From: Anaerolineae bacterium
Lineage (GTDB): Bacteria; Chloroflexota; Anaerolineae; Epilineales; JAHCIE01
Length of the DNA stretch: 64,000 nucleotides
Reading direction: 5' to 3'
NCBI GenBank assembly: GCA_034431435.1
Contig: DAOUDG010000016.1
Span: 70,574-134,573, forward strand
Both the position numbers and the translations under genes were made by a program. Of the stretch, positions 33,472 through 64,000 are shown in pieces. Below the pieces are notes generated by a model. That model searched no databases. It was not told where the DNA came from and saw nothing but the letters and a program-made list of their open reading frames with translations. Each line of letters opens with the position of its first letter. The first letter of the stretch is position 1.

Positions 33472-33658
33472 CCGCGCGCCTCTACGTAGGGGGCGGGCCG
33501 CTGTCTGCGTGGTACAATGCCCAGGGAACTGAGGTGGGTCGCGCTGCTACGGAACTGATGGCCAGTGTCCGTCTCGACCAGGTCACAGGCTCAAATTGCG
33601 CCATAACGAATGGCGCTGCATTTCCCCACCGCCGAGGATTCAGCCATAGGAGGCACAT

Positions 33659-34084
33659 ATGAACAAGGAAACTCTGATCCAACGCCTGAACGAAGACTTG
33701 GCCGGCGAGCTGGGGGCCATTATCCAGTACATCACCTACGCCGCCAAGGCCACCGGGCCGTATCGCCCCCAATTGTCTCAGTTCTTCCTGACCGAGGTGG
33801 CCGACGAGCAGCTGCACGCCCAGTTCCTCGCCAACAAGATCGTCGCCCTGGGCGGCGAGCCGACCACCACACCGCGCCCCGTGCCCGCTGCACGCACCAA
33901 TCGCGAGATGCTGGAGGCGGTGCTGGTCGCCGAGCGCCAGGCGACCCGCGACTACTCGCAGCGCGCCGACGAAGCGGCCGAGTACGGCGACAAGGGCTTG
34001 CAGGTGCAGTTGGAGGACATGGTGCGCGACGAGAGCGGCCACTCCGAGGAGACCGAGCGCATCCTGCGCGACTGGCCGCTGTAG
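33659..34084 (+). CDS. Ferritin-like domain protein (bacterioferritin/rubrerythrin-like four-helix bundle)
   Basis: 141 aa. E...EQLH and E...H spacing fits a ferritin-like di-metal site (EVADEQLHAQ...ESGHSEETE). RBS AGGAGG 7 nt upstream. Confidence 0.55.
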   Translation: MNKETLIQRLNEDLAGELGAIIQYITYAAKATGPYRPQLSQFFLTEVADEQLHAQFLANKIVALGGEPTTTPRPVPAARTNREMLEAVLVAERQATRDYSQRADEAAEYGDKGLQVQLEDMVRDESGHSEETERILRDWPL

Positions 34085-34143
34085 ATTTCGCTCGCCCGCT
34101 CGTCTTGAAAAGGCGGGCGCATGTGGTATAATCAGAAGTTGTT

Positions 34144-35373: not shown

Positions 35374-36797
35374 ACCCCGACTTTCGCCGCCGCTGGAAGG
35401 TCGCCACTGTCATCGGCGACGCGATTCTGATTCTGGTAGGCTTTGCCCTGGCCTACTGGCTGCGCTACCACGTCCAATGGATTGAGCCGGTCGATGAGGC
35501 GAACTTCGTCGAGTTCAGCGCGTACTATGGGTCGGCGCTGCTGCTGCTGGTCATTCTGCTGCTGGCCTACAAGATCGAGGGCCTGTACGACCAGCGCCGC
35601 ACCGCGTCCTGGCTGGACTCGGTCTATCTCATCTTCAGCGGAACCGTGGTGGGTGTCGCCGCCCTCATCGTCTGGTACTTCTCCTCGCGCCCCCTGGCCG
35701 TCTCGCGCCTCATGCTCCTCTACGCCGCCGTCATCATCGTCGTGCTTGTCTCCCTCAGCCGCCTGGTAGGGGGGGCGATCCGCCGCTCGCTACACCGGCG
35801 CGGCGTCGCCACCGACCGCCTGCTCATCGTTGGGGCGGGCGAGGTCGGCCGCGCCATCATGGGCAACATCGTCGCCCAGCCGGGCCTGGGCTATCAGGTC
35901 ATCGGTTACGTCGACGATGACCCCGAGAAGGCCGGCGGCTCCATCGGCCGCTTCCCATCCCTCGGCACGATTGCCGATACAACTGGCGTGCTTAGGGATT
36001 ACCAGATTGACGACGTGATTATCACCCTGCCCTGGTACGCCCGCGATAGCATCCACCGCGTACTGGAAGCGTGTGAGAGGATGGGCGTCCGGACGCGCAT
36101 CGTGCCCGACATGTTTCAGATGCGCCTGAACCAGGTGCACATTGAGACCATCAACGGCATCCCGCTCATTGGCGTCCGCGACACCAACATTCGCGGCTGG
36201 AATCGCGCCGTCAAGCGCGGCCTGGACGTGGCGCTGGCCTCGCTGGCCGTCCTCGTCACCTCACCCATCATGGCGCTCGTCGCAGCCGCCATCAAGCTCG
36301 ACTCGCCGGGGCCGGTCCTGTATCGACAGACACGGGTGGGCATGAATGGCCACGAATTCACGGTCTACAAGTTCCGCTCGATGCGTGTTGACGCCGACCA
36401 GGAGCTTGTCAAGCTCCAGGCTCACAACGAGGCCAGCGGACCCCTGTTCAAGATGCGCGACGACCCGCGCCGCACCCGCGTCGGCCGCTTCCTGCGCCGC
36501 ACCAGCCTGGATGAGCTGCCCCAGTTCTTCAATGTCCTGCTGGGCGACATGAGCCTGGTCGGCCCACGCCCCCCCGTGCCCAACGAAGTTGAGCAGTACG
36601 ACGACTGGCATCGGCGGCGGCTCGAAGTGGCGCCCGGCATCACCGGCCTGTGGCAGGTGAGCGGCCGCAGCAACCTGACCTTCGACGAGATGGTTATGCT
36701 GGACCTGTACTACGCGGAGAACTGGTCGCTGGGCCTGGACATGAAGATTCTGCTGCGCACCATCCCCACCGTCCTCCTGGGCGATGGCGCGTACTGA
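35370..36797 (+). CDS. Polyprenyl-phosphate hexose-1-phosphate transferase (bacterial sugar transferase, WbaP/CpsE-like priming enzyme)
   Basis: N-terminal TM helices, a Rossmann-like middle, and a C-terminal Bac_transf domain with [13 protein letters not shown] and LDLYY motifs. Confidence 0.75.
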
Positions 36798-41126: not shown

Positions 41127-42155
41127 ATGTCGAAACGCAGCAAGGCCAAGCCGCACGACGCGAACGGCGCGCCCGGCCACACCGACGGCGCAGCGAAGGA
41201 GAAACCTGTCCCCAACGCCGCCGCGTCGCCCCTGACACCCCCTTCAGCAGCGGCATCCTCGCTGCCCGCGTCGCCGCCACCCGCTACTCCGCCCACCCAC
41301 TCGCCTGACACCCGCACCCGGCGCGGCAAGAAGGGCGCGTCCGCCCGCCAGGTCGGCCACGACCCCGACCGCCGCCGGGAGAAGCTCGACAACCGCGCCT
41401 ACGCGCGTGAGCTGGCGCGGCTGCAAGTCGAGCTGGTCAAGCTCCAGGAGTGGGTCAAGTACCAGGGCCTCAGAGTCGTGGTACTCTTTGAGGGCCGCGA
41501 CGCAGCGGGCAAGGGCGGCGCCATCAAGCGCATCACCGAGACCCTCAACCCGCGTTACTGCCGCATCGCCGCCCTACCTGCGCCCACCGACCGCGAGAAG
41601 ACGCAATGGTACTTCCAGCGCTACATCACCCATCTGCCCGCCGCGGGCGAGATGGTTCTCTTCGACCGCAGCTGGTACAACCGCGCCGGGGTCGAGCGGG
41701 TGATGGGCTTCTGCAGCGACGAGGAATACTGGGAGTTCCTGCGCTCGTGTCCAGAGTTCGAGCGGATGCTCATTCGTTCCGGCATCATCCTCATCAAGTA
41801 CTGGTTCTCAGTCAGCGACGAGGAGCAAGAGCGACGCTTCCAGGACCGTATCGATGACCCCACCAAACGCTGGAAGCTCAGCCCGATGGATATGGAGTCG
41901 CGCGCCCGCTGGGTCGAATACTCCAAGGCCAAAGACACCATGTTCGCCTATACTGACACCAAGCAGTCGCCGTGGTTCGTGGTCGACGCCGACGACAAGA
42001 AACGCGCGCGCCTCAACTGCATCGCCCACCTGCTAACCTTGATCCCCTACGAAGACCTGACGCCGCCGCCCCTGGCCCTCCCGCCCCGCCAGCAGGACAA
42101 GGGCTACGTGCGGCCCCCCATCAACGAACAAAGTTGGGTGCCGGACATCCTCTAG
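41127..42155 (+). CDS. ppk2: Polyphosphate kinase 2 (PPK2) with ~100-aa low-complexity N-terminal extension
   Basis: Core has PPK2 Walker A FEGRDAAGKGG and lid region DRSWYNR. The N-terminal 100 aa is Pro/Ala/Ser/Thr-rich. Confidence 0.75.
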   Translation: MSKRSKAKPHDANGAPGHTDGAAKEKPVPNAAASPLTPPSAAASSLPASPPPATPPTHSPDTRTRRGKKGASARQVGHDPDRRREKLDNRAYARELARLQVELVKLQEWVKYQGLRVVVLFEGRDAAGKGGAIKRITETLNPRYCRIAALPAPTDREKTQWYFQRYITHLPAAGEMVLFDRSWYNRAGVERVMGFCSDEEYWEFLRSCPEFERMLIRSGIILIKYWFSVSDEEQERRFQDRIDDPTKRWKLSPMDMESRARWVEYSKAKDTMFAYTDTKQSPWFVVDADDKKRARLNCIAHLLTLIPYEDLTPPPLALPPRQQDKGYVRPPINEQSWVPDIL

Positions 42156-42179: not shown

Positions 42180-44384
42180 ATGGCCCGCAATCGACGCCGC
42201 GACAAGCATAACGGGCGAGAGCCAGAACTCCGAACCGTCGTCGTGTCCCGCAACGGGCGCAAGAAAGACCCACCCGTGCCGTCGGACGCGGCGCGCTACG
42301 TCAACCGTGAGCTGAGTCTCATCGACTTCTCACGGCGCGTGTTGGAGGAGGCCGAGGATACGCGCAACCCGCTGCTGGAGCGGGTCAAGTTTCTCGCCAT
42401 CGTCAGCTCCAACCTGGCCGAAGTCTTCATGGTGCGGGTTGCGGGCCTCAAGCAGCAAATCGAGGCCGGTGTCACCGAGCGCTCGATGGACGGCCTCACG
42501 CCGGCCGAGCAACTCATCGCCGTGCGTGAGGCCGCCTGGCAACTGATGGTCGACACGCGCCGCGCCTACCAGGCGTTGTTGCCCCAGCTCAACGCCGCCG
42601 GCATCCACATTCTCACCTACGCTGAGTTGAATGATGAGCAGCGCGCCGCGGCCGACGCCTATTTCCAGGAAATCGTCTTCCCGGTTCTGACCCCGCTCGC
42701 GAATGATCCCGGCCGCCCCTTTCCTCACATCTCCAACATGAGCCTGAGCCTGGCCATCATGATCCGCGACCAGGCGGGGGTAGAGCGTTTCGCCCGCATC
42801 AAAGTCCCCAACACCCTGCCGCGCCTGCTGGAGGTCCCGGCCGCGGACCCCAGCCCCACCCAACATACCTTCGTGTGGCTGGAGCACGTGATCGCCGCCA
42901 ACATGGGCATCCTCTTCCCCGGTATGGAGGTCGTCGAATCCCACCCCTTCCGCACCACCCGCGATGCCGAGATGGTGATCCAGGAGTTGGAGGCGGAAGA
43001 CCTGTTGGACACCGTGGAGCGTGGCGTCCGCCAGCGGCGCTTCGGCTCGGTAGTTCGCCTCACCATCGAGCCGTTCATGCCGAGCTACATCCGCGAGATT
43101 CTGGTCGAGAACATGGACATCGACCCCGGCGACATCTACACTCTGGATCCGCCGCTGGGCATCAGTGACCTGATGGTGTTGGCCCGCGTCGACCGCCCCG
43201 ACTTGAAATTCAAGCCCTTCACCCCTGCCATCCCGCCGGTCGTCGAGGACGAGGCCGACATCTTCACCGCCATTCGGCAGCAGGACATCATCCTCCATCA
43301 CCCCTACGACTCCTTCGAGCCGGTGGTCGAGCTGATCGACACGGCCGCCCATGACCCCAACGTGCTGGCCATCAAGATGACGCTGTATCGGGTGGGGCGG
43401 AATGCGCCTGTCGTGCGCGCGCTGCTCGATGCGGCGCGCAACGGCAAGCAGGTGGCCGTGCTGGTGGAACTGAAAGCCCGTTTCGACGAGGAGAGCAACA
43501 TCGAGTGGGCAAGGCAACTGGAGAGTGAGGGCGTCCACGTCATCTATGGCCTGGTCGGCCTCAAGACTCACTCGAAGATAGCCCTGGTAGTGCGCAAGGA
43601 AGGCGACCGCCTGCGCCGCTATGTTCACCTCTCGACAGGCAACTACAACGCCGTCAGCGCCCAGCTCTATACCGACCTCGGCCTGCTGACCGACGACGAG
43701 GCGATGGGGGCCGACGCCTCCGACCTGTTCAACTATCTGACCGGTTACTCGGCCAAGCGCGACTATCGCCGCTTCGTCGTCGCCCCTGTCAACATGCGCT
43801 CGCAACTCACCACGCTTATCGAGCGCGAGATTCAGCGCCAGCAGGAGGGCCAGGTCGGGTATCTCATCTTCAAGACCAACTCCCTCGTCGACAAGGATAT
43901 GATCAACCTGCTCTACCGCGCCTCCCAGGCGGGCGTCAAGATCGACCTGCTGGTGCGCGGTATGTGCTCGCTGCGCCCCGGCGTACCCGGTCTCAGCGAC
44001 AACATCCGCATTCTCAGCATCCTGGGCCGCTTTCTGGAGCACAGCCGCATCTACTACTTCAGCAACGGTGGCCAGGAGGAAATCTATCTCGGCAGCGCCG
44101 ACATGCGCACTCGCAACCTCGACCGCCGTGTCGAGATTCTCTTCCCCATTTGCGACGCTGCCAATGTGCGTTACCTGCGCGACGTGGTGTTGGCCGCGTA
44201 TCTGGCAGACACCGCCAAGGTGCGCCTGATGCAGCCCGATGCCACCTACACGCGGCGGCTGCCCGCCCCCGGCGAGGCCGAGTTCAACGCCCAGGAGTGG
44301 TTCATCCAGACCCGCGATTGGCGCGACCACGACACGCTGCCTGCCCCGCCCGTCGCATCGTCGCAGCCTACCTCAACCGGCTAG
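42180..44384 (+). CDS. ppk: Polyphosphate kinase 1
   Basis: 734 aa with PPK1 N, head and two PLD-like C domains. Conserved RYVHLSTGNYN histidine-autophosphorylation region. Confidence 0.85.
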   Translation: MARNRRRDKHNGREPELRTVVVSRNGRKKDPPVPSDAARYVNRELSLIDFSRRVLEEAEDTRNPLLERVKFLAIVSSNLAEVFMVRVAGLKQQIEAGVTERSMDGLTPAEQLIAVREAAWQLMVDTRRAYQALLPQLNAAGIHILTYAELNDEQRAAADAYFQEIVFPVLTPLANDPGRPFPHISNMSLSLAIMIRDQAGVERFARIKVPNTLPRLLEVPAADPSPTQHTFVWLEHVIAANMGILFPGMEVVESHPFRTTRDAEMVIQELEAEDLLDTVERGVRQRRFGSVVRLTIEPFMPSYIREILVENMDIDPGDIYTLDPPLGISDLMVLARVDRPDLKFKPFTPAIPPVVEDEADIFTAIRQQDIILHHPYDSFEPVVELIDTAAHDPNVLAIKMTLYRVGRNAPVVRALLDAARNGKQVAVLVELKARFDEESNIEWARQLESEGVHVIYGLVGLKTHSKIALVVRKEGDRLRRYVHLSTGNYNAVSAQLYTDLGLLTDDEAMGADASDLFNYLTGYSAKRDYRRFVVAPVNMRSQLTTLIEREIQRQQEGQVGYLIFKTNSLVDKDMINLLYRASQAGVKIDLLVRGMCSLRPGVPGLSDNIRILSILGRFLEHSRIYYFSNGGQEEIYLGSADMRTRNLDRRVEILFPICDAANVRYLRDVVLAAYLADTAKVRLMQPDATYTRRLPAPGEAEFNAQEWFIQTRDWRDHDTLPAPPVASSQPTSTG

Positions 44385-51744: not shown

Positions 51745-54700
51745 GTGTCGAAGGCGAACACGCATTACCCAAAGCCGCCGCACCGTGTCCGCGAGCTTAC
51801 GCCCAATACGCATACCGTTCAACGCTCGGCGTTGGCCGCCGCTCGCGGGCAGGATGACAGCGGCTCGACCAAAAACCTACGCCACTTCCGTGGGCCAACA
51901 CGCATCCTCTCGCGCTCGGGCGCCCCCGACCGGGGCAATGCCAGCGCCCTCAGCAACCTGCCCCCCCCGGCGATCCCTCTCATTGGCCGCGACCATGAAC
52001 TGGCCGAGCTGCGTGCGCTACTCACCGAGTCGGAGGCGCGTCTCGTTACTCTGACCGGCGCGGCCGGCTGCGGCAAGTCCCGCCTGGCCCTGGAAGTCGC
52101 CGCCTCGGTCATGTCAGCCTATCCTGATGGTGTCTGGTGGGTCGACCTGGCGCACACGCCTGACGCCGACGAGGTTGTGACCCGCATCCGCGCGACGCTT
52201 CAGATGGACGAGGACGCCGACGAGTCCCCCACCGCCGTGCTGTCGCACCTTGAATCGAAGCGCCTCCTGCTCCTTCTCGATGACTGTGAGCCGCTGACGC
52301 GCGCCACGGCGGATGTGATTCACCATATCCTGGCAGCGGCTCGCGCCGTCACCATCCTGGCCACCAGCCGCGAGCCGCTGCGCCTGCCCGACGAGCGAAC
52401 CTGGCACACCCAGGCGCTGGCCGTCCCGACGGCAGCCGAGATCACCACAGGCGTCGATGCCATGCCGCCGGACGACCAGGCCCGCTATGTTGAGAGTCTG
52501 GCCGAGTACGACGCTGTCCGCCTGTTCGTGGCGCGCGCCCAGGCGGCGCGGCCCGGCTTTGCGCTGACGCCCGCGACGGTCAGCCTGGTCGGCGACATCT
52601 GCCGGCAGTTGGAAGGCCGACCGCGCGCCATCCTATTGGCCGCCGAGCGTAGCCGCGTCCTGTCGGTCGTCCAGATTGCCTCGACCCTCGGCGATCTGAT
52701 TCGCCCGCCTCGTCCCCGCGCTCGCCAGGCCGCCAGTGCTGAACAGAGCCTGCGCGCCGGCCTGGAGTGGAGCCACGCCCGACTCAGCCCCCCCGACCAG
52801 CGCGTCTTCCGTAGCCTGGCGGTATTCGAGGGCAGCGCCTCACTGGAAGCCGTCGAGGCCGTCTGCGCGCCCGCTGAGCTATCGACCCTCGAAGTCCTCG
52901 ACAGCCTGGTGGAATTAGTCGATGCCTACTTGCTGCAGGTCGAGAGCCAGTTGGGCGCCGCGCGCTATCGGTTGCCCGTCCTCAGCCGCACCTACGCGGC
53001 CGAGAAGCTCACCGCCGCCGGCGAGGGCGACACGGTGCGCGCGGCCCACGCCGCCTTCTTCGCCTGCCTGGCCGAGGCTGCCCTGCCCCACCTGGACGGC
53101 CCACAGCAGATTCAATGGATGGCGCGGCTTGACCTGGACCGGGACAATCTGCACGCGGCCCTGGCCTGGTCGCTCGAAGTCGGGGATGCCCAGACGGCGC
53201 TGCGGCTGTCGGCCTCGCTGTGGCCCTATTGGCAGGCGCGGGGCGTCAGCGACGAAACACGCCAGTTCCTCGACGCTGCCCTGGCGCTGTCGGGCACGAA
53301 TGTGGCAGAGCTTCACATCCGCACGCTCGACGGCGCGGCGACCCTCGCCTACCTCCAGGGCGACGGCGAGCGCGCCGAAACCCTGCACACGCGCAGCCTG
53401 GCCCTCAAGCGCGAGAGCGGCGATGAGGCCCGGCAGACGCCTTCGCTGTGCGCCCTGGCCGCCCTCAGCATCGACCGGCGCGACTACGAGCGGGCAGAAA
53501 CGCTGTGTCAGGAGGCCCTTAGCCTGAGCCGGGAGCGCCGCGACCGCCGCGCCACGGCCTACGCCCTCCTCCATCTCGGTCGGCTGCGTCATGCCTGCTG
53601 CGACTACCGCGCGGCGACTGCCCTGTTCGACGAGGCCGTCGCAGCCTACCGGGTATTGGGCGACGCGCGGGGGCTGGCTCTGGCCTTGAGCGCGCACGCC
53701 GCCACGGCGAGCGTCCAGGGTCGCCGCGACGAAGCGCGGACGCTCGCTGACGAGGCGCTCGGCTTGCGGCGCGAGCTTCACGACGAGATGGGCATCGCCG
53801 CCTCCCTTGCCGATCTGGGCGCGCTGGCGCGAGACAGCGGCCACCTGGATCACGCCGCCGAGTTGCTGCACGATAGCCTGACGCGCTACCGCCACCTCCG
53901 CGCGCGAGGGGGCGTCGCCCGCGTGCTGGCCGACCTGGCGCTATTGGCTGTCTACCAGGACAACCCTGCCCACGCACGGATGACCTGCGCCGAGAGCCTG
54001 ACCCTCTACGAGGAACTGGGCGCCAGCGACGGCATCGCCACGGCGCTCAGCATCCAGGCGCTCGTCACGCTCCATGACGGCGATAGCCCGCGCGCTCTGG
54101 CCCTGGCCCACAGGGCGCTAGAGATGCGCCGCAGCCAGCGCGATCAGCACGGCATCGCCGAGTGCCTCGACATCGCGGCCGCCATTTACGCCACGACCGG
54201 CCCCCTGGAGCATGCGCCCCGGCTAGAGGGCATCGCCGCCGCCTTGCGCGAGACCATCGGCGCGCCCCGCCCACCGGCCTTCGACGCCGATCTGCGGTGT
54301 CGCCTGTCCCCGGCGGTTTGTGGCCTGGGCGCAGAGCCGTATGAGGCTCTCCGCCACCAGGCGCACAGCGCCCCCTTCGAGGAACTCGACCGGTTGGCGT
54401 GCACGGAGCCGGCGCTCGCGGTTCCCGACCAGCGCGCCACGCGGCCGTCACCTGTCGTGGCGGTGGCCGCGCCGCCAGCCGCCGACTCCGGCCCCGATCT
54501 GCGCGTGCTGGCCCTCGGCCAGAGCAAGGTCTATCGTGACGAGCGACTGCTGTCCACCGCCGACTGGACCTACGCCAAGCCGCGTGAGATGCTTTTCTTC
54601 CTGCTGTCGCACCCACCGCGCACCAAGGAGCAAATCGGCGTGATGCTGTGGCCGGACGCATCGCCCAATCAGCTCCGCGCCGCGCTGCACCCGGCCCTGT

Positions 54701-55257
54701 ATCATCTGCGGCGCACCCTGGGCGACCGCCGGCGCGTCGTGACCCGCCAGGACAGCTACTCGTTCAACCGCGATATCCCCTACTACTTCGATGTTGACGA
54801 GTTTGAGTCCCTCGTGACGCAAGCCCGCCGCTACGCCGAGAAAGCCCCCAACCAGGCAATTGCGGACCTCAAGGCGGCAGTGGCCCTGTATCAGGGTGAC
54901 TTCCTCGCCGACATGACGGTCACCAGTGAGTGGGCGCTCATCCGCCGCGAGGAACTGCGCCAGACCTTCCTGGAGGCCCTGCTCCTGCTCGGGCGATTGC
55001 TCCTCGAGGCGCAACGCTACACAGAAGCGGCGGATATCTATCGGCGCGCCATCGCCCAGGATAGCTACCTGGAGGTCGCTCATCGCGAGTTGATGCGCTG
55101 CTATCAGCTGCAAGGCGAGATCAGTCGCGCCCTCAAGCACTATCAGGGCCTTGTGGAGTACCTCCGCACGGAGATGGCATCGGTCCCCGCGCCCGAGACG
55201 ACGGCCCTTTTCCAGCGCCTGGCCGCCCAGGTTGCGTATACATCTAGCGGCAAATAG
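51745..55257 (+). CDS. Large (~1170-aa) signal-transduction regulator: N-terminal NB-ARC/AAA-type ATPase, central TPR array, C-terminal OmpR-type winged helix + BTAD (SARP domain order inverted)
   Basis: Walker A TGAAGCGKSRLALEV and hhhhD Walker B LLLLLDDCEPL. Many TPR-like repeats (residues 400-800). C-terminal LRVLALGQSKVYRDERLLS...YHLRRTLGD (wHTH) followed by a BTAD helical region. Start (GTG 51745) uncertain. Confidence 0.6.
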   Translation: MSKANTHYPKPPHRVRELTPNTHTVQRSALAAARGQDDSGSTKNLRHFRGPTRILSRSGAPDRGNASALSNLPPPAIPLIGRDHELAELRALLTESEARLVTLTGAAGCGKSRLALEVAASVMSAYPDGVWWVDLAHTPDADEVVTRIRATLQMDEDADESPTAVLSHLESKRLLLLLDDCEPLTRATADVIHHILAAARAVTILATSREPLRLPDERTWHTQALAVPTAAEITTGVDAMPPDDQARYVESLAEYDAVRLFVARAQAARPGFALTPATVSLVGDICRQLEGRPRAILLAAERSRVLSVVQIASTLGDLIRPPRPRARQAASAEQSLRAGLEWSHARLSPPDQRVFRSLAVFEGSASLEAVEAVCAPAELSTLEVLDSLVELVDAYLLQVESQLGAARYRLPVLSRTYAAEKLTAAGEGDTVRAAHAAFFACLAEAALPHLDGPQQIQWMARLDLDRDNLHAALAWSLEVGDAQTALRLSASLWPYWQARGVSDETRQFLDAALALSGTNVAELHIRTLDGAATLAYLQGDGERAETLHTRSLALKRESGDEARQTPSLCALAALSIDRRDYERAETLCQEALSLSRERRDRRATAYALLHLGRLRHACCDYRAATALFDEAVAAYRVLGDARGLALALSAHAATASVQGRRDEARTLADEALGLRRELHDEMGIAASLADLGALARDSGHLDHAAELLHDSLTRYRHLRARGGVARVLADLALLAVYQDNPAHARMTCAESLTLYEELGASDGIATALSIQALVTLHDGDSPRALALAHRALEMRRSQRDQHGIAECLDIAAAIYATTGPLEHAPRLEGIAAALRETIGAPRPPAFDADLRCRLSPAVCGLGAEPYEALRHQAHSAPFEELDRLACTEPALAVPDQRATRPSPVVAVAAPPAADSGPDLRVLALGQSKVYRDERLLSTADWTYAKPREMLFFLLSHPPRTKEQIGVMLWPDASPNQLRAALHPALYHLRRTLGDRRRVVTRQDSYSFNRDIPYYFDVDEFESLVTQARRYAEKAPNQAIADLKAAVALYQGDFLADMTVTSEWALIRREELRQTFLEALLLLGRLLLEAQRYTEAADIYRRAIAQDSYLEVAHRELMRCYQLQGEISRALKHYQGLVEYLRTEMASVPAPETTALFQRLAAQVAYTSSGK

Positions 55258-55273: not shown

Positions 55274-55384
55274 ATGCAGTATCAGTTACGCAACATGGCT
55301 GTGAAGGCCTACTTCACGACCAAAATTCAAGCAGTTCCACAAGCAGTTCCGCAAGCGGCAGGCATTACACTAAAAATTGAGTAG
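55274..55384 (+). CDS. Putative 36-aa small ORF (MQYQLRNMAVKAYFTTKIQAVPQAVPQAAGITLKIE)
   Basis: Sits in an AT-rich island 17 nt after the regulator stop. Contains a tandem CAAGCAGTTCC repeat, translated as AVPQAVPQ. Coding status unproven. Confidence 0.2.
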   Translation: MQYQLRNMAVKAYFTTKIQAVPQAVPQAAGITLKIE

Positions 55385-55968: not shown

Positions 55969-56508
55969 ATGGAAGACCTTATGGCTATGCCTGCTTTCGC
56001 ACCCACCAACTCAGTTGACGTGCCTACCTGGTACGCACTTCACACCAAGCCCCACGCTGAGCAGCAGGTGACGACGGCGTTGCAGGCGCGCGGCTTCGAG
56101 GCCTATCTGCCCACGATTCCCGTCTGGCGCGCCCGGCGCCGCCGAACCGAGGCCGAGCCGTTCTTCGCCTGCTACAGCTTCGTGCGGGTCGCCCTCTCGA
56201 CCGTGGGCCTGTCGGCTATCACCTGGGTCCCCGGCCTCCGCGCAGTCGTCAGCAGCGAGGGTCACCCCATCCCCATCGCCCCGACTGTCATTGACACGAT
56301 CCAGCGCCACCTGGGCGACCTGCCGGTGACCGGGCCGCGCCGCCTGGAGCCTGGCGATCGCGTCGAGATTACCGCTGGCCCGCTGCAAGACCTGGAGGGC
56401 ATCTTCCAGGGCCACCTGTCGAGTGTCGAGCGCGCCCAGGTACTGGTCAACGTTTTGGGGCGAATGACCCGTGTCGAGATTCGGGAGAACTGGCTCAGGA
56501 GGATCTGA
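55969..56508 (+). CDS. Specialised NusG paralog (NGN + KOW; LoaP/UpxY/TaA-like processive antiterminator)
   Basis: NGN motif WYALHTKPHAEQQVTTALQARGFEAYLP, C-terminal KOW (GDRVEITAGPLQDLEGIF). Small (179 aa) and positioned as first gene of a glycan cluster, as for cluster-specific NusG paralogs. Confidence 0.7.
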   Translation: MEDLMAMPAFAPTNSVDVPTWYALHTKPHAEQQVTTALQARGFEAYLPTIPVWRARRRRTEAEPFFACYSFVRVALSTVGLSAITWVPGLRAVVSSEGHPIPIAPTVIDTIQRHLGDLPVTGPRRLEPGDRVEITAGPLQDLEGIFQGHLSSVERAQVLVNVLGRMTRVEIRENWLRRI

Positions 56509-56509: not shown

Positions 56510-57583
56510 ATGCTCATCGCACGAGCGCCGGTCCGCATCAGCCTCGGCGGTGGCGGAACTGACCTGGCCGCCTACTATCGCCCCTACGGGGGTATGGTCA
56601 TCAGCGCGGCCATCGACAAGTACTTCTATACCTTCATCTCGCGCGGCGCGCAGGACGAGGGGGTGCAGGTCATCTCCTCCGACTATCGAACGTTCTACCG
56701 CCACGACCCGCGCCAGCCCTTCTTCTGGGACGGCAACCTGCAGCTGCCGCGCGCCATCCTGCACCACTTCGGCGTCGAGCGTGAGTACAACGTGTTCCTG
56801 GCGTCCGAAGTCCCGCCCGGCACCGGCCTCGGCTCGTCGGGCAGCGTGGCCGTCACCCTCGTGCGCGCCCTGAGTACCCTGGCCGACATCCCCATGTCGC
56901 GACAGGAAATTGCCGAGACCGCCGCGTACATCGAGGTCGAGAAGATGGGCATGCCGGTCGGTAAGCAAGATCAGTACATCGCCGCCTTCGGCGGCGTAAA
57001 GGTGATCACCTTTAGCGCCGACGGCGTCACCGTCGAGCCGTTGCGCCTCGATGACGCCACGCTGGGACGCCTGGAGAGCCGTCTCATCCTGTTCTTCACC
57101 GGCAGTAGCCGCGAGTCATCCAACATCCTGGAGCATCAGAAGCAGGCAAGCGAGAAGCGTGATCCCGTCGTCATCGACGCCTTGCACACGATCAAGGCGC
57201 TGGCCCACGACATGCGCAGCTTCCTGGAACTGGGCGACCTGGACGGTTTCGGCCAACTGCTGGACGAGTCGTGGCGCGAGAAGAAGAAACTCGCCCCGAA
57301 CGTCTCCTCGTCGGGCATCGACCGCTGGTATGCGCTGGCTCGTCAGCACGGCGCGATTGGCGGCAAGGTGACCGGCGCGGGCGGTGGCGGCTTCCTGATG
57401 CTCTACTGCCCCATCGATCGCCAGGCCGCCGTCACTCAAGCCCTCGAAGCCGATGGCCTCGTTCGCATGAACTTCCGCTTCGACTTCCAGGGCGCAACCG
57501 TCCTCCTAAACACCCTATCACGTACGAACGGAGTCCAGACGCAGCCCTCATGGGCGACGGCGCGTAGCGCCGCCCTCCGATAG
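56510..57583 (+). CDS. GHMP-family sugar kinase, D-glycero-D-manno-heptose 7-phosphate kinase (HddA)-like
   Basis: N-terminal APVRISLGGGGTDL, and GHMP ATP motif PPGTGLGSSGSVAV. ATG 56510 four nt after the NusG-paralog stop, with RBS AGGAGG. Confidence 0.7.
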   Translation: MLIARAPVRISLGGGGTDLAAYYRPYGGMVISAAIDKYFYTFISRGAQDEGVQVISSDYRTFYRHDPRQPFFWDGNLQLPRAILHHFGVEREYNVFLASEVPPGTGLGSSGSVAVTLVRALSTLADIPMSRQEIAETAAYIEVEKMGMPVGKQDQYIAAFGGVKVITFSADGVTVEPLRLDDATLGRLESRLILFFTGSSRESSNILEHQKQASEKRDPVVIDALHTIKALAHDMRSFLELGDLDGFGQLLDESWREKKKLAPNVSSSGIDRWYALARQHGAIGGKVTGAGGGGFLMLYCPIDRQAAVTQALEADGLVRMNFRFDFQGATVLLNTLSRTNGVQTQPSWATARSAALR

Positions 57584-57603
57584 TCCCCCCTAAGGAGGTG
57601 TTC

Positions 57604-58254
57604 GTGAGAGTCGTATTTCTCGATCGCGATGGCGTCATCAACGAGAACCGCCCCGATCACGTCAAGGCGTGGTCAGAGTTCCAGTTCCTGCCGGGTGCGC
57701 TCGACGCTCTGCGTCTCCTGCGCGAGGCGGGCTGGCGGGCCATCGTGGTCACTAACCAGGCCATCATTCACCGCAATGTCGTCCCGCGTGCCACCGTGGA
57801 TGACATCAACCAGCGTATGCGCGAGACCGTCGAGATTCACGGCGGCCGCATCGATGCCGTGATGTGCTGCCCCCACCGGCCTGAAGAGAACTGCGACTGC
57901 CGCAAGCCGCGCCCTGGCCTGCTCCAACAGGCCGCGACCCAATTCAACCTGCCGCTGGACCAGTGCTACATCATCGGCGACGCCTACAGCGACATTCAGG
58001 CCGGTCGCGCCGTCGGCTGCCGCACCATCATGGTGAAGACGGGTCGGGGCTTGCAGCAGATGATGACCGCGCCGCCCTTGTCCCTGCGGCCCCATCAAGT
58101 GGCGAGCGACCTCGCCGACGCCGCCACGTGGATGGTCCGCGCTGAGCGTCGTCGCCTGCTCTTGCGTGTCTCCGACTCGGGCCTGCCCATTGGTGTGCCT
58201 GCCATCACCCCGCCCACCCTCTTTCCGTGGTCAAGCAACTCCGCCTCTACATGA
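57604..58254 (+). CDS. HAD-superfamily D,D-heptose 1,7-bisphosphate phosphatase (GmhB)-like
   Basis: FLDRDGVIN motif I, VVTNQ motif II, and zinc-binding C...H...CDCRKP loop typical of GmhB/HisB-N. GTG 57604 with RBS AAGGAGG. Confidence 0.65.
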
Positions 58255-58970
58255 TGCGGCAGGCGGCCAGCCTGCGCTACTATCTCATCGAACAGACGAT
58301 CATGACGCTCTTCGGGTGGATGCCGACCATCGTCGGCATCGGCCTGCGGAGCGTCGTGTATCGCCTGATTCTGCGCATGGACGGCACGGCCGCCATCGAG
58401 AACGGGGTGCGGCTGCGCTTCGCCAGCAACATCCGCCTGGGCCACGGCGCGTACCTTGACCACGGTGTCTACCTGCACGCCTGCCCCAACGGCATCAGCA
58501 TCGGCCCCAACAGCCTGGTGATGCATGGCTCCGTGCTGCACGTCTACAACTTCCGCCACATGCCCCATTCTGGCATCCACATTGGCCGCGATAGCTTGAT
58601 CGGCGAGTACAACGTGCTGCGCGGCCAGGGTGGCGTCACGATCGGCGATCGGGTCTATACCTCACCGCTCGTCCAGATGCTGGCGGTAAATCACCTCTTC
58701 GACGACCCCACGCGACCCTTCGTCAGTCAAGGCATCACGGCCCAGGGCATCGTGGTGGAGGATGACGTCTGGATTGGCGGCGGCGCCATCATCACCGACG
58801 GCGTGCGCATCGGCCGCGGCTCAGTGGTGGCGGCCGGCGCCGTCGTGACGAAGGATGTGCCGCCTCACACCGTCGTCGCCGGCGTTCCCGCCCGTATCGT
58901 TCGCCATATCGTCGCCAACGGCGCGCAGTCACGCGCCGAGACTGTGTATTACTCTCAGGGGGACGCATGA
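58251..58970 (+). CDS. Left-handed beta-helix (hexapeptide-repeat) acyl/acetyltransferase
   Basis: Repeated [LIV]G-x4 hexapeptides (IGDRVY..., [27 protein letters not shown]). ATG overlaps the stop of the upstream gene (ATGA). Confidence 0.65.
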
Positions 58971-60241
58971 CTGTAGACGCCGCGCTTCGACCCATCGACT
59001 TCGCCCGGCCCGCCGTCGCCGCGCCGCTGCTACCGCCGGTCACGCTGTCGGTGGTGATCCCCGCGCTCAACGAGGAAGACGGCATCGCCGACATCGTCCA
59101 CCGCATCCAGGCCGTCGCGCCTGCCTTGCGCGAGGTGGGCGTCGAGCATCTCGAAGTTATCGTCGTGGACGACGGTTCCACCGACCGGACCGCTGAGATT
59201 GTGCAGAGTATACCCGGCGCGCGCCTGGTCCGCCATCCCGTCAATCGCGGCTATGGTGCGGCCATCAAGACCGGCTTCCTCGCCGCGCATGGCGAGTTGC
59301 TCGCCTTCACCGACGCCGACGGGACGTACCCACCCGAGCGTTTCCCCAGCCTGTGCCAGGCCGCGCTCGTCGATGGGGCGGACGTGGCCGTGGGGTCGCG
59401 CCGCTCTGGGGCCGAGAGTCACATGCCGATGGTGCGGCAGGTGGGCAACTTCATCTGGTCCAACCTGGTCAGCGTCATCGGCAACCAGCGCGTGGCGGAC
59501 CCCGCCAGTGGCATGCGCGTGGTGCGCCGCGACGCGCTGGCGCAGCTGTACCCGCTGCCCGATGGCCTCAACTTTACCCCGGTGATGAGTACGCGCTCGG
59601 TCCACGAGGGCCTCAAGGTGGTCGAGATTCCCATCGCCTACAGCGAGCGCGTCGGTCGCTCCAAGCTCAGCGTGGTCAGGGACGGGACGCGCTTCCTCAA
59701 GACCATTCTCTGGACCTCGCTGGAGTATAACCCAGCGCGCCTGCTGGGCATGGTGGGGCTGGCCTGCCTTGTCGTGGCCGCCATCCTGGCGGCCGGCCTT
59801 GTCGCGCTGCGCGCCCAGGGCGTCACGCAGCTTGGACCGTGGGGCGTGTTCTGCCTGTTCACGGCGATGGTGCTCAGCTTCGTCGGCGTGAGCACGTTCT
59901 CCCTCGGCGCGACCTTCAACTATCTCGTGTCGCTCTTCCGCAAGGAGCCGGTGCGGGTGGGCCTCTTTGGGCGACCCGTCTTCAAGACGCCGCTGGATCG
60001 CCACTTCTGGTGGATGGGGCTACTGGCGGGGGCGTTGGGCGCTGCCCTCGCCGTGGTGGCTCTGGTCCTGGGTCTCCAGGGCTGGGAGATTTCGCGCTCA
60101 TGGTTCTGGATGCTGACCAGCGCTTTCCTGGCGCTGATCGGTTTGCAACTGTTCATCTCGTGGATTCTGATGCGCGTGCTAGAGGCGCTGAGCGAGCGCG
60201 AGGTGCGTATCAGCCAGGAAATGGCCCGCGCCACGCCGTAG
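58967..60241 (+). CDS. GT2 polyprenyl-phosphate glycosyltransferase (DPM1/ArnC/GtrB-like) with C-terminal membrane helices
   Basis: [11 protein letters not shown]...[12 protein letters not shown] and DADG motifs. Four C-terminal TM segments. ATGA overlap with the previous gene. Confidence 0.75.
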
Positions 60242-60280: not shown

Positions 60281-61957
60281 ATGGCAGTTACCCACAATGG
60301 CATCAAGCCCGAGGACATCAAGACTCGGGACGAGCTACGTCACAACCTGGGCACGCGCCCTGTCAAAGCGCCGCGTCCGCCCGACTTTCCCGACGCGGGC
60401 GCGGCGGTACGCGACCTGACCCACACGCGGCCCTCGACGGCCGTCGATGTGCTGCTGGTCAATCCCCCGTCCCCCGACGGCGGCATCTGGATTCGCACCC
60501 AGCACCGCGTCGGGCGACGCAGCCGCGAGGAGATGGTGTGGCCACAATGCTCCCTGGCGCAGCACGCCGCGATGCTGCACCCGGAGTACAGCATCGCCAT
60601 CGTCGACTGCATCGCCGAGCGCATGTCGTGGCAGGACTTCGAGACGCTGCTGCGCGAAAAGGCGCCCAAGTACTACTTCACCCAGGTCACCGCGCCCACC
60701 CTGACCAACGACATGTACGGGGTCATGCTCGCCAAGAGCCTGGGCGCGATCACGATGGCCTTTGGCACGCATGTCACCGCCATGCCCACCGAGACGATGC
60801 GCGACTTCCCGGCGCTGGACTTCGTGATTCGCGGCGAGCCGGAGCTGACCTTCCGCGAGCTAATCGACGTCCTCGAAGGCCGCGAGACCGACCGCGCCGA
60901 GTGGGTCCAGGCGATTCTGGAGAAGTCCGATCCGTGGTGGAAGCCCGTCGGCCATCATGGCCCGCAGAACGGAACCCCCATCGACCTGACGAACCTCAAG
61001 GGGCTGGTGTGGCGCAAGGATGGCGTCATCACCATGAACGCCACGCGCCCCTGGATCGCCAACCTGGACGATCTGCCCATTCCCCTCTACCACCTGCTGC
61101 CGCTGGACAAGTACCGTATGCCCTTGATGAAGGGGCCGTTCGTGTTCATGGTCACCAGCCGCGGCTGCACGGCCGGCTGCAAGTACTGCATCAAGCACGT
61201 CACCTACCAGTGGTCGGTGCGCCTGCACTCGCCAGAGCGCATCCTCCAGGAGATGTGGCTACTCCACGACCTGGGCATCCACAACATCCACATCTACGCC
61301 GACCTCTTCACCATCAACCGCGAGCAGGTGGTCCAGCTGTGTCAGCTGATCATCAAGGAGGGATTGAAGGTCAAGTGGACCTGCAATAGCCGCGTCGACT
61401 ACGTGGACGAAGAGATGCTCAAGCTCATGGGCCGTGCGGGCTGCTGGATGATCTCGTGGGGCATCGAAAGCGGTAACGAGGCCATCCTCAAGCGCGCCGC
61501 CAAGGGCGCCGATCCCAAGAAGGCGAAGCAGGCCCTGACCTGGGCGCGGCAGGCCGGCATCAAGAACTGGGGCTACTTCATCATCGGCCTGCCCGGCGAG
61601 ACGGTCGAGACCATCCGCCAGACCATCGACTTTTCCAAGTCGCTGCCGCTGGAACTGGCGCTGTTCCACATTGCCGCCCCCTACCCCGGCACGCCCTTCT
61701 TCTTCGAGGTGGTCGAGAATGGCTGGTTCAAGCCCGGCACCAAGTGGGAGGAAGTCGATATGGACAAGGGCACCGTCCTCCAATACGACAACCTCTCCGC
61801 CGAGGACCTGATGTACTGGCAGAAACAGGCTTTCAAGGAGTGGGCCTTGCGGCCCGGCCCGGCCAAGACCTACGCCAGGATGCTGGTAAGTGATAGCGCC
61901 ACCTTCAAGCGCGCCGTTCGTGTCGGGATGGAACATCTCCAGTGGGTGCTGCGGTAG
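60281..61957 (+). CDS. Cobalamin-binding radical SAM enzyme (class B rSAM)
   Basis: N-terminal B12-binding Rossmann-like domain (VLLVNPPSP...), and rSAM cluster motif CTAGCKYC (CxxxCxxC) within FMVTSRGCTAGCKYCIK. 558 aa. Confidence 0.75.
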   Translation: MAVTHNGIKPEDIKTRDELRHNLGTRPVKAPRPPDFPDAGAAVRDLTHTRPSTAVDVLLVNPPSPDGGIWIRTQHRVGRRSREEMVWPQCSLAQHAAMLHPEYSIAIVDCIAERMSWQDFETLLREKAPKYYFTQVTAPTLTNDMYGVMLAKSLGAITMAFGTHVTAMPTETMRDFPALDFVIRGEPELTFRELIDVLEGRETDRAEWVQAILEKSDPWWKPVGHHGPQNGTPIDLTNLKGLVWRKDGVITMNATRPWIANLDDLPIPLYHLLPLDKYRMPLMKGPFVFMVTSRGCTAGCKYCIKHVTYQWSVRLHSPERILQEMWLLHDLGIHNIHIYADLFTINREQVVQLCQLIIKEGLKVKWTCNSRVDYVDEEMLKLMGRAGCWMISWGIESGNEAILKRAAKGADPKKAKQALTWARQAGIKNWGYFIIGLPGETVETIRQTIDFSKSLPLELALFHIAAPYPGTPFFFEVVENGWFKPGTKWEEVDMDKGTVLQYDNLSAEDLMYWQKQAFKEWALRPGPAKTYARMLVSDSATFKRAVRVGMEHLQWVLR

Positions 61958-61993: not shown

Positions 61994-63604
61994 ATGACCG
62001 ATTATACGCCCGACGCACGCGAGAAGGCGCTCGCGTTGCCGTCGTTGCTGCCGCCGCAGCTCCTTGTCCGCGAGCTGGCCTGCTTCGCCGTCGCGTTTGT
62101 CGGCGCTCTTCTCCTCTATGTGCCGTTCCTATCGATTCAGTTCGATGTCAATGGGATCATCGAAGCCCAGGCGGTGGAGCGCGGCGGAACGTTCCTGTTC
62201 TCCCCTAATCGGCTGTTGTATCGAGCCATAGGAGCGCTGGGGTACGAGCTGGCGCTACGGAGTTCCGGCCCATCGTTGCCGCTGTTGCAGTTCCTGAGCG
62301 CGTTCCTGTCGAGCGTAGCCATCGCGGTGTTCTGCGTCGTGGCTTTTCGGCTCACGAAGAGCATGACCGCATCGCTCTGGGCCACGGCCCTGTTGGCGAC
62401 ATCGTGGTCGTTCTGGGCCTACAGCACCGATGCCTATTACATCACCCCGGCCGCGCTGGCCATCTTCTGCGCCCTGGCGCTGCTCATTCCAGCGACGACC
62501 AGCCTGCGAGCAGCCATCGGCGCGGCGGTGTTTGTCAGTGTGGGTATCCTGTTGTGGCAGGCCAACATCTTCGCCATTCCCTTGTGCCTCGGCCTCCTGC
62601 TCTTCTACGCGCCGCGCCGCGCCCGACGCCGACGGCGGACAAACGCTCTGGCCTTCCTGGTGGTCGTCGGCGGCCTGACCGCAGCCAGCTATCTCACCGT
62701 GGCGGTCGCTGTCCATGGCCTCGGTGATGGGAAGGCGCTGCTCGACTGGCTGCTATCCCACGGCAGCGATGAATTCGGTCGCCCGCCGATCTGGGGCGTC
62801 TGGTCCCTCGACCGGGTCCCGGCCGCCGCCGTGGCGGCCATCTCTAGCTGGATTCCCGTGTGGGATGGTCTGGGCTTGAGGAAGTTAGCCCAGGGTCAGT
62901 TCCAGCTGCACAAGCTCGTCCCCCAGCTCTCCCTGGTCTCGCTGGGTATGCTGGCTGCCCTCCTGAGCCACGAGCCTACCCGCTGGAAACCAGCGCGCCC
63001 CGAATGGCGGCGGCTGGGGTGGCTGCTACTGGCCGGCTATCTTCTCTATATGCCCTTCGTGGTGTGGTGGGATCCGGCTCCCAAGTGGTTCGTCATCCCC
63101 AACGCCTTCCTGGTGTTGGGCGCCGCCCTCATGCTGTCCAGGCGCCTGCACCGCAGGAATCCAGGCCCCGTGTTCTTGTACGCCAGCCTGGTCGCCATCG
63201 TCGCGGCGGCCAACTTCACCACCTCCGTGTATCCGCGTCACACCATGTCCGGCCCGGAGATTCCCGTCGCGGAGTGCTTTGTGCAGGCGACCACGCCGCA
63301 GGATGCGCTGGTCCCGCTCGACTGGGCCTGGACGGAGTACGCGACGTATCTGTTTGGCTATCAAGGCAGGATCCTCGGACTCCCGCCGAATCTATCGGCC
63401 GTAGGCCCTATCCGCGCCGCCATCGAGAGCGCTGAGAGGTCCGGCGGCAGTGTGTACGTTGTGGACAGGCGCGACGCCCCGGCCGACGTCAAGCAGCGCA
63501 TCCGTGACACCGGCTATGCGCTCGATGCCGTCCTGGTGTTTGAGCACGAGCCTGCCTTCTCGTGTGGCGACATACACTTTTCGCGGTTACGAGCCACTCC
63601 CTAG
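61994..63604 (+). CDS. Multi-pass membrane protein, candidate GT-C-fold (ArnT/PMT-like) glycosyltransferase
   Basis: About 10-12 hydrophobic segments. Acidic first extracytoplasmic loop (FDVNGIIEAQAVERG). Basic loop PRRARRRRRTN. Large C-terminal soluble domain. The family call is inference. Confidence 0.45.
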   Translation: MTDYTPDAREKALALPSLLPPQLLVRELACFAVAFVGALLLYVPFLSIQFDVNGIIEAQAVERGGTFLFSPNRLLYRAIGALGYELALRSSGPSLPLLQFLSAFLSSVAIAVFCVVAFRLTKSMTASLWATALLATSWSFWAYSTDAYYITPAALAIFCALALLIPATTSLRAAIGAAVFVSVGILLWQANIFAIPLCLGLLLFYAPRRARRRRRTNALAFLVVVGGLTAASYLTVAVAVHGLGDGKALLDWLLSHGSDEFGRPPIWGVWSLDRVPAAAVAAISSWIPVWDGLGLRKLAQGQFQLHKLVPQLSLVSLGMLAALLSHEPTRWKPARPEWRRLGWLLLAGYLLYMPFVVWWDPAPKWFVIPNAFLVLGAALMLSRRLHRRNPGPVFLYASLVAIVAAANFTTSVYPRHTMSGPEIPVAECFVQATTPQDALVPLDWAWTEYATYLFGYQGRILGLPPNLSAVGPIRAAIESAERSGGSVYVVDRRDAPADVKQRIRDTGYALDAVLVFEHEPAFSCGDIHFSRLRATP

Positions 63605-63906
63605 CGCCACTCGCGCCCGGCCCTGAAGTATCCTGGCGCCACCCCCTAGCGCGCCGTCCGTGTCAGCCCGGAACGCCTCCAGCAGGCGCGCCGGGCAGGC
63701 GCGGGCGGGGAGAGCGGGACAGATGCGCGTGAGCCCATTCGTCCCCCCCGGTGGGTTCACATCCCCCTGGACGTCTGTCCCGCACCTCTCCCCTTAGCCC
63801 CCGCCTCATCTGACTTTGCTGCTGGTTCCCGGTCGGTTGCGCCGCGCTGGCTTGACTGGCCCCCAAGACACTCCTGACCCCCGTGAGACCCTGGAGTTAC
63901 GCACTA

Positions 63907-64000
63907 TGGACCTCTCGATCATCGTCCCGTGCTACAACGAAGCCGAGAACACCGACAAGCTGCGGCGCGAACTATTCCCCGTCCTGGCGGAACTGGCGCA
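63907..64000 (+). CDS. GT2 glycosyltransferase, 3' truncated by the window edge
   Basis: MDLSIIVPCYNEAENTDKL is the canonical GT2 N-terminus (DXD-family). Confidence 0.55.

Follow-up and report, generated by a model that had tools for sequence, protein, structure and literature searches.

The question raised by this locus is what a radical S-adenosylmethionine (rSAM) enzyme is doing among glycosyltransferases, and on which substrate it acts. The gene lies near the end of a 64,000-nucleotide stretch of an Anaerolineae genome (contig DAOUDG010000016.1; hereafter the window, meaning the whole stretch that was analyzed). We found it to stand last in a mobile cassette of three genes, encoding a hexapeptide-repeat acyltransferase, an ArnC-like family 2 glycosyltransferase (GT2) and the rSAM enzyme, that sits within cell-surface polysaccharide loci. 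The enzyme probably remodels a sugar. Our reading, of moderate confidence, is that it acts on a monosaccharide linked to polyprenyl phosphate and tailors it before it is flipped and transferred, a scheme whose chemistry, substrate and step order are our proposal. The coordinates of all features are collected in Table 1.

The open reading frame (ORF) of the rSAM enzyme begins with an ATG preceded 7 nt upstream by GGAGG, a strong ribosome-binding site, and its third-position GC is 0.90 compared with a GC content of about 0.67 for the window. The product matched the Pfam domain Radical_SAM (PF04055) over residues 290–451 with 99.6 bits (gathering threshold [GA] 29.5). The cluster motif, C296-x3-C300-x2-C303, was invariant in the 35 family members compared; with a CxxxCxxC motif and a core match above threshold, the protein belongs to the rSAM superfamily. 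Its hydropathy profile showed no hydrophobic or membrane segment. Two candidate family-specific features were rejected. C354, C368 and C388, considered as an auxiliary cluster, are common to the wider HpnJ/BchE-like group, and residues 66–88 after strand 1 (HxxG motif), considered as an insertion, have a counterpart of similar length in that group.

The AlphaFold model of the enzyme (mean predicted local distance difference test score [pLDDT] 70, predicted template modeling score [pTM] 0.75) consists of a five-strand β/α N-terminal domain made of β-α units (residues 57–198) followed by the rSAM barrel. In a Foldseek comparison with the Protein Data Bank (PDB), its top match was AprD4 (6fd2; E 3e-23, TM score 0.75 on the target), after which came MgmA, TsrM, OxsB, CysS and TokK, all cobalamin-dependent two-domain enzymes. 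AprD4 was also the best PDB match by sequence (E 8e-27, 22% identity). At the level of the predicted structure, the two-domain model and the fold matches to class-B-type structures support a class B or AprD4-type two-domain architecture. An earlier, sequence-only reading of this DNA had called the product a class B (cobalamin) rSAM enzyme. The gene is real, and the predicted structure supports the B12-type architecture, whereas cobalamin binding itself is something that we infer. A Pfam B12-binding domain is recorded in about half of the close homologues, and to our knowledge the base-off mode of cobalamin binding in class B rSAM enzymes has no diagnostic sequence motif.

The enzyme was compared with the curated families of NCBIfam, 33 of which gave matches. 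The best was HpnJ (TIGR03471; 222 bits, cut-off 577.6, E 1.4e-65), with an alignment limited to the rSAM core (model positions 141–467), and the second-best was ApyD (149 bits, cut-off 750), an enzyme of peptides that are made by ribosomes and modified after translation (RiPPs). Lower scores were obtained for BchE (TIGR02026; 136.7 bits, cut-off 481), the diol dehydratase AprD4 (NF033070; 115.1 bits, cut-off 500) and a ladderane-type lipid rSAM (71 bits, a weak match), and for the methylase models PhpK (116 bits, cut-off 600), Sden_1168 (110 bits, cut-off 575), MgmA (99 bits, cut-off 360), KedN5 (53 bits, cut-off 700), HpnR (53 bits, cut-off 650) and TsrM-type (27.5 bits, cut-off 500). None of the curated cut-offs was reached, those of the methylase models included, and HpnP, GenK, Fom3 and MoeK5 were not among the best 25 of the 33 matched families. 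The nearest sequence neighbors of the enzyme scored 109–291 bits against the HpnJ model (cut-off 577.6), so none of them is HpnJ. No hopanoid genes (hpnI, hpnK or related) were present among the Pfam-annotated genes of the window between 12 and 64 kb, and the 82 related loci described below are polysaccharide loci. No NCBIfam model covers the family. By these scores, the enzyme belongs to none of the curated families tested, HpnJ, BchE, AprD4, PhpK and MgmA among them. It is placed in a distinct, highly conserved, uncharacterized HpnJ/BchE-like clade. The possibility raised in the sequence-only reading that it might fall into the BchE or HpnP clades, with relatives outside any glycan context, was not borne out: the enzyme lies outside BchE (137 vs 481 bits), and in its relatives the gene stays within glycan loci.

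In a search of 5.8 billion proteins, homologues were 72–84% identical across the first 120 matches, and their named sources were Chloroflexota (Ardenticatenaceae, Caldilineaceae) and a bin labeled Isosphaeraceae. A protein 100% identical to that of the window is also present in the databases. In a 50%-identity representative library, the family thinned out steeply, with a few full-length clusters at 40–48% identity and then many proteins of about 470 aa at 33–38%. We also scanned one genome per species with two family-specific peptide patterns and obtained at least 599 matching stretches, of which at least 558 were confirmed. The best 80 of these belonged to Chloroflexota (mostly Anaerolineae) and Acidobacteriota, with one from Acidimicrobiia. 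The closest among the stretches listed, with 96% identity, was in an Anaerolineae metagenome-assembled genome (MAG). Identity within the clade was 60–96% across Chloroflexota and Acidobacteriota. We found no paper on this rSAM family or on an rSAM step in a polyprenyl-phosphate glycosylation system.

Several further observations were made on the family. The window enzyme is 69–76% identical to versions from Acidobacteriota and Acidimicrobiia and 62–66% identical to many from Chloroflexota (Anaerolineales, Promineifilaceae; loci L020–L038 vs L039–L086). Since it is closer to the former than to many of its own phylum, these identities suggest that the cassette has moved between phyla. The protein labeled Isosphaeraceae (P0065) has a closely related locus (L011) labeled Chloroflexota, so the bin label may be wrong. 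Three full-length relatives at 40–48% identity (P0123, P0133 and P0136) have lost the CxxxCxxC motif and therefore cannot be active rSAM enzymes in the usual sense. Five proteins of 1,900–2,600 aa (P0137, P0142, P0160, P0172 and P0259) matched the query in three or four separate stretches and look like several B12-type rSAM modules fused together.

The genomic context was compared across 82 non-redundant loci, using tblastn with reference proteins and clustering of ORF calls; gene order beyond the end of the window was taken from the 96%-identical relative L005 and others. An ArnC-like GT2 gene lay upstream of, and co-directional with, the rSAM gene in 74 of the 77 loci whose upstream flank was 1.5 kb or longer (65 of them with a distance of no more than 300 nt), and a hexapeptide acyltransferase gene preceded this pair in 59 of the 69 loci with enough flank. 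The commonest next downstream gene encoded a Wzy_C-type (O-antigen ligase/polymerase-like) protein, often fused to TPR; such proteins were found in 30 + 12 loci. Other neighbors were a Bac_transf priming transferase (24 loci), an NAD-dependent epimerase/dehydratase (22), a NusG paralog (21), a GmhB-like HAD protein (18), an HddA-like kinase (17), a Wzz/tyrosine kinase (16), a GT4 glycosyltransferase (14), a GmhA-like SIS protein (10, accompanied by NTP_transferase in six), and, in eight loci each, a Wzm/Wzt ATP-binding cassette (ABC) transporter, a carbamoyltransferase, a small EamA protein and a PMT_2-like GT-C protein. Minimal loci (e.g., L046 and L061) comprised little beyond the acyltransferase, GT2, rSAM and Wzy_C–TPR genes. 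The cassette was retained in a 46%-identical relative (L087), where Wzm/Wzt and GT4 genes follow, and a 45% relative had a small EamA protein directly upstream. GT2 divergence correlated weakly with rSAM divergence (Spearman 0.35, p 0.003) and acyltransferase divergence did not, so no co-evolution argument was drawn.

Because the cassette and its polysaccharide neighbors are kept across the related loci, the glycan context is a property of the family and not an accident of one genome. The initial proposal of a lipid-linked sugar or a glycan methyl branch as the target therefore stood in its glycan part, given the GT2 in 74 of 77 loci and the recurrent Wzy_C, Bac_transf, Wzz, GT4 and Wzm–Wzt genes. 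Its C-methylation part is plausible; the nearest defined family, HpnJ, is a proposed non-methylase, and the nearest solved structure, AprD4, is that of a sugar diol dehydratase.

Two recurrent arrangements beside the cassette were also recorded. In eight Promineifilaceae-type loci (L046, L057, L061, L075 etc.), two genes follow the Wzy_C–TPR gene, one for a predicted membrane protein of 76 aa and one for a carbamoyltransferase of 620 aa that is NodU/CmcH-like in appearance, which suggests carbamoylation of the same glycan. A second set of genes lies downstream of the cassette in 96% relatives (L005 13626–21677) and adjoins it in two distant loci (L040 and L085). Its members are a 257-aa GT2, a small EamA protein (136 aa in the 96% relatives), a UDP-N-acetylglucosamine 2-epimerase, a flavin adenine dinucleotide-dependent oxidoreductase (DAO), a protein of 535 aa with a weak relation to PMT_2-like proteins (hhalign probability 50%) and PMT_2. 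This set may be a further system that decorates glycans by way of polyprenyl-phosphate-linked sugars.

In the window, the rSAM gene is flanked by a GT2 gene 39 nt upstream and a membrane protein gene 36 nt downstream. The GT2 matched ArnC in the PDB over nearly its whole length (9hwj; E 9.5e-25, residues 23–336), followed by Pyrococcus furiosus DPMS and GtrB; its best NCBIfam matches were AglJ, dolichyl-phosphate hexose transferase and ArnC, and hydropathy indicated four C-terminal hydrophobic segments. By every test applied, the predicted product is a membrane-anchored polyprenyl-phosphate glycosyltransferase. The downstream protein had no Pfam or NCBIfam match and only nine database homologues, and is thus lineage-restricted; profile–profile comparison showed no relation between it and the Wzy_C and PMT_2-like proteins of other loci. 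Residues S47, D51, N53 and E57 are invariant, with Asp51 in the first loop. All 16 best Foldseek matches of its model in the PDB were GT-C enzymes (E 4.8e-6 to 1.1e-3, TM score 0.34–0.48), comprising PglB (E 4.8e-6), STT3, AglB, ArnT (TM score 0.48), DPY19, AftA, ALG9 and AftD among others. As no sequence family was matched, the GT-C label rests on the predicted fold, and the protein is probably a transferase using a lipid-linked sugar. The placement of the rSAM gene between a polyprenyl-phosphate GT2 and a GT-C transferase, as originally described, thus agrees with what we found for both neighbors, for the latter through its predicted fold.

We propose the following sequence of events. On the cytoplasmic side, the membrane-anchored GT2 would take a monosaccharide from its nucleotide-sugar donor and attach it to polyprenyl phosphate. 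At this locus, the HddA- and GmhB-like enzymes may help to make the loaded sugar, which would then be a heptose, as suggested by the presence of their genes in the operon and of GmhA and a nucleotidyltransferase in some relatives. The rSAM enzyme would cleave SAM at its [4Fe-4S] cluster, and the resulting 5'-deoxyadenosyl radical would abstract a hydrogen from the lipid-linked sugar, altering it, and the acyltransferase would acetylate the sugar. A small EamA-type protein, encoded just past the end of the window in 96% relatives (136 aa, two genes beyond the GT-C gene), may flip the product, and the GT-C-fold protein would then pass the sugar on, outside the membrane, to a glycan or a protein. 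Action on a lipid-linked sugar is favored by the parallels with HpnJ and with Cds, both of which are proposed to work on lipid-attached sugars.

A number of observations weigh against this scheme. The Pfam B12-binding domain scored 24.4 bits on the rSAM enzyme (residues 91–194), under its GA of 32.1, and AprD4, the best structural match, functions without cobalamin. Heptose genes (HddA- and GmhB-like) accompany the cassette in only 17–18 of the 82 loci. Gene adjacency fits an enzyme acting before the GT2, on a nucleotide sugar, and one acting after it alike, and in most relatives the downstream membrane protein is of Wzy_C type, a family whose characterized members use polyprenyl-diphosphate-linked donors and not monophosphate-linked ones. 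In a few relatives, lasso-peptide genes are found interspersed with those of the cassette. The best 80 of the at least 558 confirmed stretches are nearly all from MAGs, with none clearly from a cultured isolate, and the function of the family is entirely predicted.

Three other substrates were considered. The first is a cytoplasmic nucleotide-activated sugar, which the enzyme would C-methylate, deoxygenate or epimerize and the GT2 would then load in its modified form; the adjacency just described would be equally well explained. The lack of a membrane segment in the rSAM protein, the action of AprD4 on a soluble aminoglycoside sugar, and the sugar-nucleotide genes in the same operons (HddA and GmhB; GmhA and NTP_transferase in relatives) would also fit. 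We nevertheless consider it rather unlikely: HpnJ, the closest defined family, and Cds are proposed to act on lipid-attached sugars, the near-obligate partner is a polyprenyl-phosphate GT2 and no sugar-nucleotide enzyme, and we know of no B12-type rSAM enzyme that acts on a nucleoside diphosphate sugar. It is improbable that the enzyme instead methylates, cyclizes or saturates the polyprenyl carrier or another membrane lipid glycosylated by the GT2. Many B12-type rSAM enzymes do act on isoprenoid lipids (HpnP/HpnR, ring synthases of glycerol dialkyl glycerol tetraethers [GDGTs], ladderane enzymes), and weak NCBIfam matches to the ladderane-type (71 bits) and HpnR (53 bits) models point in that direction. 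However, both are far weaker than the match to HpnJ, no isoprenoid or lipid biosynthesis genes were annotated in the related loci, and there would be little reason for a dedicated modification of the carrier lipid to move together with just one GT2 and an acetyltransferase.

The sequence-only reading had offered a ribosomal peptide as an alternative substrate, citing a small ORF at 55274, 5 kb upstream of the rSAM gene. In such a system, the GT2 would be a peptide glycosyltransferase or the 36-codon ORF a precursor. Some relatives lend this a measure of support: a complete set of lasso-peptide genes is interleaved, in two blocks, with the cassette of L003/L004, L009 and L011, PqqD, a Transglut_core3 fragment, GT2 and rSAM follow one another in a 37%-identical relative (L093), and the second-best NCBIfam match of the rSAM enzyme is ApyD. 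On the other side, the window gave no tblastn match to PqqD, Transglut_core3 or a lasso-type Asn synthase, about five of the 82 loci combine lasso genes with the cassette, and the GT2 is a membrane-anchored ArnC-type enzyme. The small ORF does exist. It was found only in the 96% relatives L005–L007, where five of its 36 residues differ and the nucleotide changes are mostly non-synonymous; it was absent from all other related loci, and it carries a tandem DNA repeat. With this ORF confined to the 96% relatives and no RiPP maturation genes in the window, the peptide alternative has no support at this locus, and we judge it very improbable. The repeat is followed by an AT-rich stretch including TAAAAAT, and a simpler interpretation is that the region possibly serves as a regulator-binding or promoter region for the operon, with a long leader.

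The lasso-linked loci (L003 1–13163, L011 6187–19647 and also L009, L012, L014 and L062) encode rSAM enzymes 76–81% identical to that of the window. In L003/L004, L009 and L011, PqqD and NTP_transf_5 genes lie between the acyltransferase and GT2 genes, and the rSAM gene is followed by genes for Transglut_core3, NusG, Asn synthase, a 47-aa precursor with the leader pattern PxLxxxGxxxxxT, an HPr-kinase-like protein and an ABC exporter. In some loci, what is retained between the acyltransferase and GT2 genes is NTP_transf_5, either alone or together with PqqD.

Returning to tailoring of a lipid-linked sugar, C-methylation via methylcobalamin is a plausible chemistry for the rSAM step, which we put forward tentatively. 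A ring rearrangement of the HpnJ/OxsB type, or an AprD4-type dehydration or other reaction, agrees with the data just as well, and we give each of these only slightly less weight. BchE and OxsB are non-methylases. Fom3 had been listed in the sequence-only reading as a sugar-acting member of the class; what it methylates is a cytidylylated hydroxyethylphosphonate and no sugar carbon. Similarity cannot settle the chemistry, because HpnJ, a proposed non-methylase, co-clusters with the methylases Fom3 and MoeK5 in a published similarity network (PMC9204698), and the best structural match of the enzyme is a sugar dehydratase.

A broader proposal, which we consider possible but less likely than not, is that Chloroflexota and Acidobacteriota share a widespread, hitherto unrecognized "four-component" glycosylation route, in which the rSAM enzyme performs carbon-skeleton chemistry (ring contraction to a carbocycle, as proposed for HpnJ and Cds, or C-branching) directly on a polyprenyl-phosphate-linked monosaccharide. 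If so, the route would yield an unusual sugar in cell-surface glycans, and no radical tailoring step on the universal glycan carrier lipid of bacteria would have been known before its rSAM reaction. The tailoring of polyprenyl-phosphate-linked sugars known to us consists of simple steps only, e.g., deformylation, deacetylation and epimerization, and an rSAM step on a carrier-linked sugar would be a new type of chemistry in bacterial glycan assembly. The proposal also predicts unknown sugars in the envelopes of two abundant and poorly cultured phyla of soil and wastewater. The strict pairing with a defined GT2 provides a concrete candidate substrate, a lead that is usually missing for orphan class B enzymes.

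The operon containing the cassette in the window is co-directional and tightly packed, its genes overlapping or lying no more than 40 nt apart, in the order NusG paralog, HddA-like kinase, GmhB-like phosphatase, acyltransferase, GT2, rSAM enzyme and GT-C-fold protein. The large regulator gene upstream of the operon (Pfam BTAD 91.9 bits, with TPR_12 and NB-ARC) occupies the same position in the 96% relatives L005–L007. The best NCBIfam matches of the NusG paralog were RfaH (81 bits) and UpxY (61 bits), both below cut-off, and that of the kinase was HddA (199 bits, cut-off 600); the kinase likely starts at the ATG at 56510, judging from comparison with the 357-aa product of L005. The acyltransferase, with maltose O-acetyltransferase and the WcaF family as its best NCBIfam matches, is probably an O-acetyltransferase. 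The window ends 400 nt after the GT-C-fold gene, within the second GT2 gene, and contains no small flippase gene. An Rfam scan of 49–64 kb gave no match at E values up to 0.1, and thus no riboswitch, cobalamin riboswitches included, in the long leader; promoter and terminator scans yielded no more than expected from shuffled sequence.

A second group of polysaccharide genes lies about 20 kb upstream of the rSAM operon, separated from it by a valyl-tRNA synthetase gene and housekeeping genes. In addition to the members in Table 1, this group includes a ferritin-like gene. A further epimerase and GT4, and two adjoining polyphosphate kinase genes, were also located in the window.

Table 1 Features of the 64-kb window, with positions counted from its first nucleotide.
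Feature	Coordinates	Strand	Description
Epimerase and GT4	20279–22439		Further epimerase and GT4 genes
Second polysaccharide gene group	27641–36797		
GT4	29943–31067		Second polysaccharide group
SHMT/aminotransferase-like gene	32137–33471		Second polysaccharide group
GT4	34144–35373		Second polysaccharide group
Bac_transf priming transferase	35370–36797		Second polysaccharide group; with CoA_binding_3
PPK2	41127–42155		Polyphosphate kinase
PPK1	42180–44384		Polyphosphate kinase
Large regulator	51745–55257	+	NB-ARC/AAA, TPR, C-terminal BTAD (SARP/AfsR-like); upstream of operon
Small ORF	55274–55384		36 codons; directly after regulator gene, about 600 nt before NusG paralog
12-nt tandem repeat	55328–55356		CAAGCAGTTCCA x2.4; inside small ORF; Tandem Repeats Finder score 51
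NusG paralog	55969–56508	+	RfaH/UpxY-like specialized antiterminator; first operon gene; Pfam NusG 59.8 bits
HddA-like GHMP sugar kinase	56510–57583	+	D-glycero-D-manno-heptose 7-phosphate kinase-like; Pfam GHMP_kinases_N and _C
GmhB-like HAD-IIIA phosphatase	57598–58254	+	Heptose 1,7-bisphosphate phosphatase-like; NCBIfam NF006506 178.2 bits, cut-off 178
Hexapeptide-repeat acyltransferase	58227–58970	+	MAT/WcaF-like; Pfam Hexapep 50.3 bits
Polyprenyl-phosphate GT2	58967–60241	+	ArnC/DPMS/GtrB/AglJ-like; Pfam Glycos_transf_2 110.6 bits; start overlaps acyltransferase stop
rSAM enzyme	60281–61957	+	558 aa; soluble; two-domain (Rossmann B12-type N-domain + rSAM barrel)
Polytopic membrane protein	61994–63604	+	536 aa; predicted GT-C fold; AlphaFold pLDDT 72, pTM 0.75
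Second, short GT2 (start only)	63906–64000	+	Cut by window end; tblastn to residues 1–31 of the 257-aa GT2 of L005, 94% identity

Among known systems, HpnJ is a B12-type rSAM enzyme encoded with the GT2 HpnI, which puts a sugar on a lipid, and is proposed, on genetic evidence only, to carry out ring contraction of a glucosamine already attached to bacteriohopanetetrol (PMC13459092, PMC9204698). The window enzyme is likewise paired with a GT2 and has HpnJ as its best-scoring curated family, but that GT2 is ArnC-like with no NCBIfam match to the HpnI model, an acyltransferase is found where the hopanoid pathway has the deacetylase HpnK, and the context is polysaccharide loci. In Sulfolobus, the rSAM enzyme calditol synthase (Cds) is proposed to convert a lipid-bound hexose to a five-membered carbocycle (PMC13459092). 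Radical chemistry on a lipid-linked sugar is common to this case and our scheme as a parallel of idea and not of compared sequence; Cds is archaeal and its lipid is a GDGT. GenK, which C-methylates C-6' of gentamicin X2 (PMC4039129), and MoeK5, listed as a class member of the moenomycin pathway (PMC9204698), are of the enzyme class to which the window enzyme probably belongs, but sit in antibiotic pathways and not in surface-glycan loci. No solved structure is closer, by sequence or by fold, than that of AprD4, an rSAM enzyme that serves apramycin biosynthesis as a 1,2-diol dehydratase. At the 22% identity given above, it has the same two-domain layout, and its substrate is a sugar, a soluble pseudodisaccharide.

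The Gtr, Csb and Arn systems (GtrA/GtrB/GtrC; CsbB/GtcA/YfhO; ArnC/ArnD/ArnE-F/ArnT) combine a polyprenyl-phosphate GT2 with a GT-C transferase and a flippase of small size. ArnD of the Arn pathway tailors the polyprenyl-phosphate-linked sugar before flipping, an established precedent for the order proposed here. The window encodes a membrane-anchored polyprenyl-phosphate GT2 and, on predicted structure, a GT-C transferase, while the candidate flippase, the 136-aa EamA-type protein, is known from the 96% relatives, beyond the end of the window. It differs from those systems in its putative tailoring enzymes, an rSAM enzyme and an acetyltransferase, which are not described for them, and in most relatives the downstream membrane protein is of Wzy_C type and not GT-C. 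By analogy with these pathways, the best reading of the system is an Arn/Gtr-type glycosylation route with an added, previously undescribed radical step.

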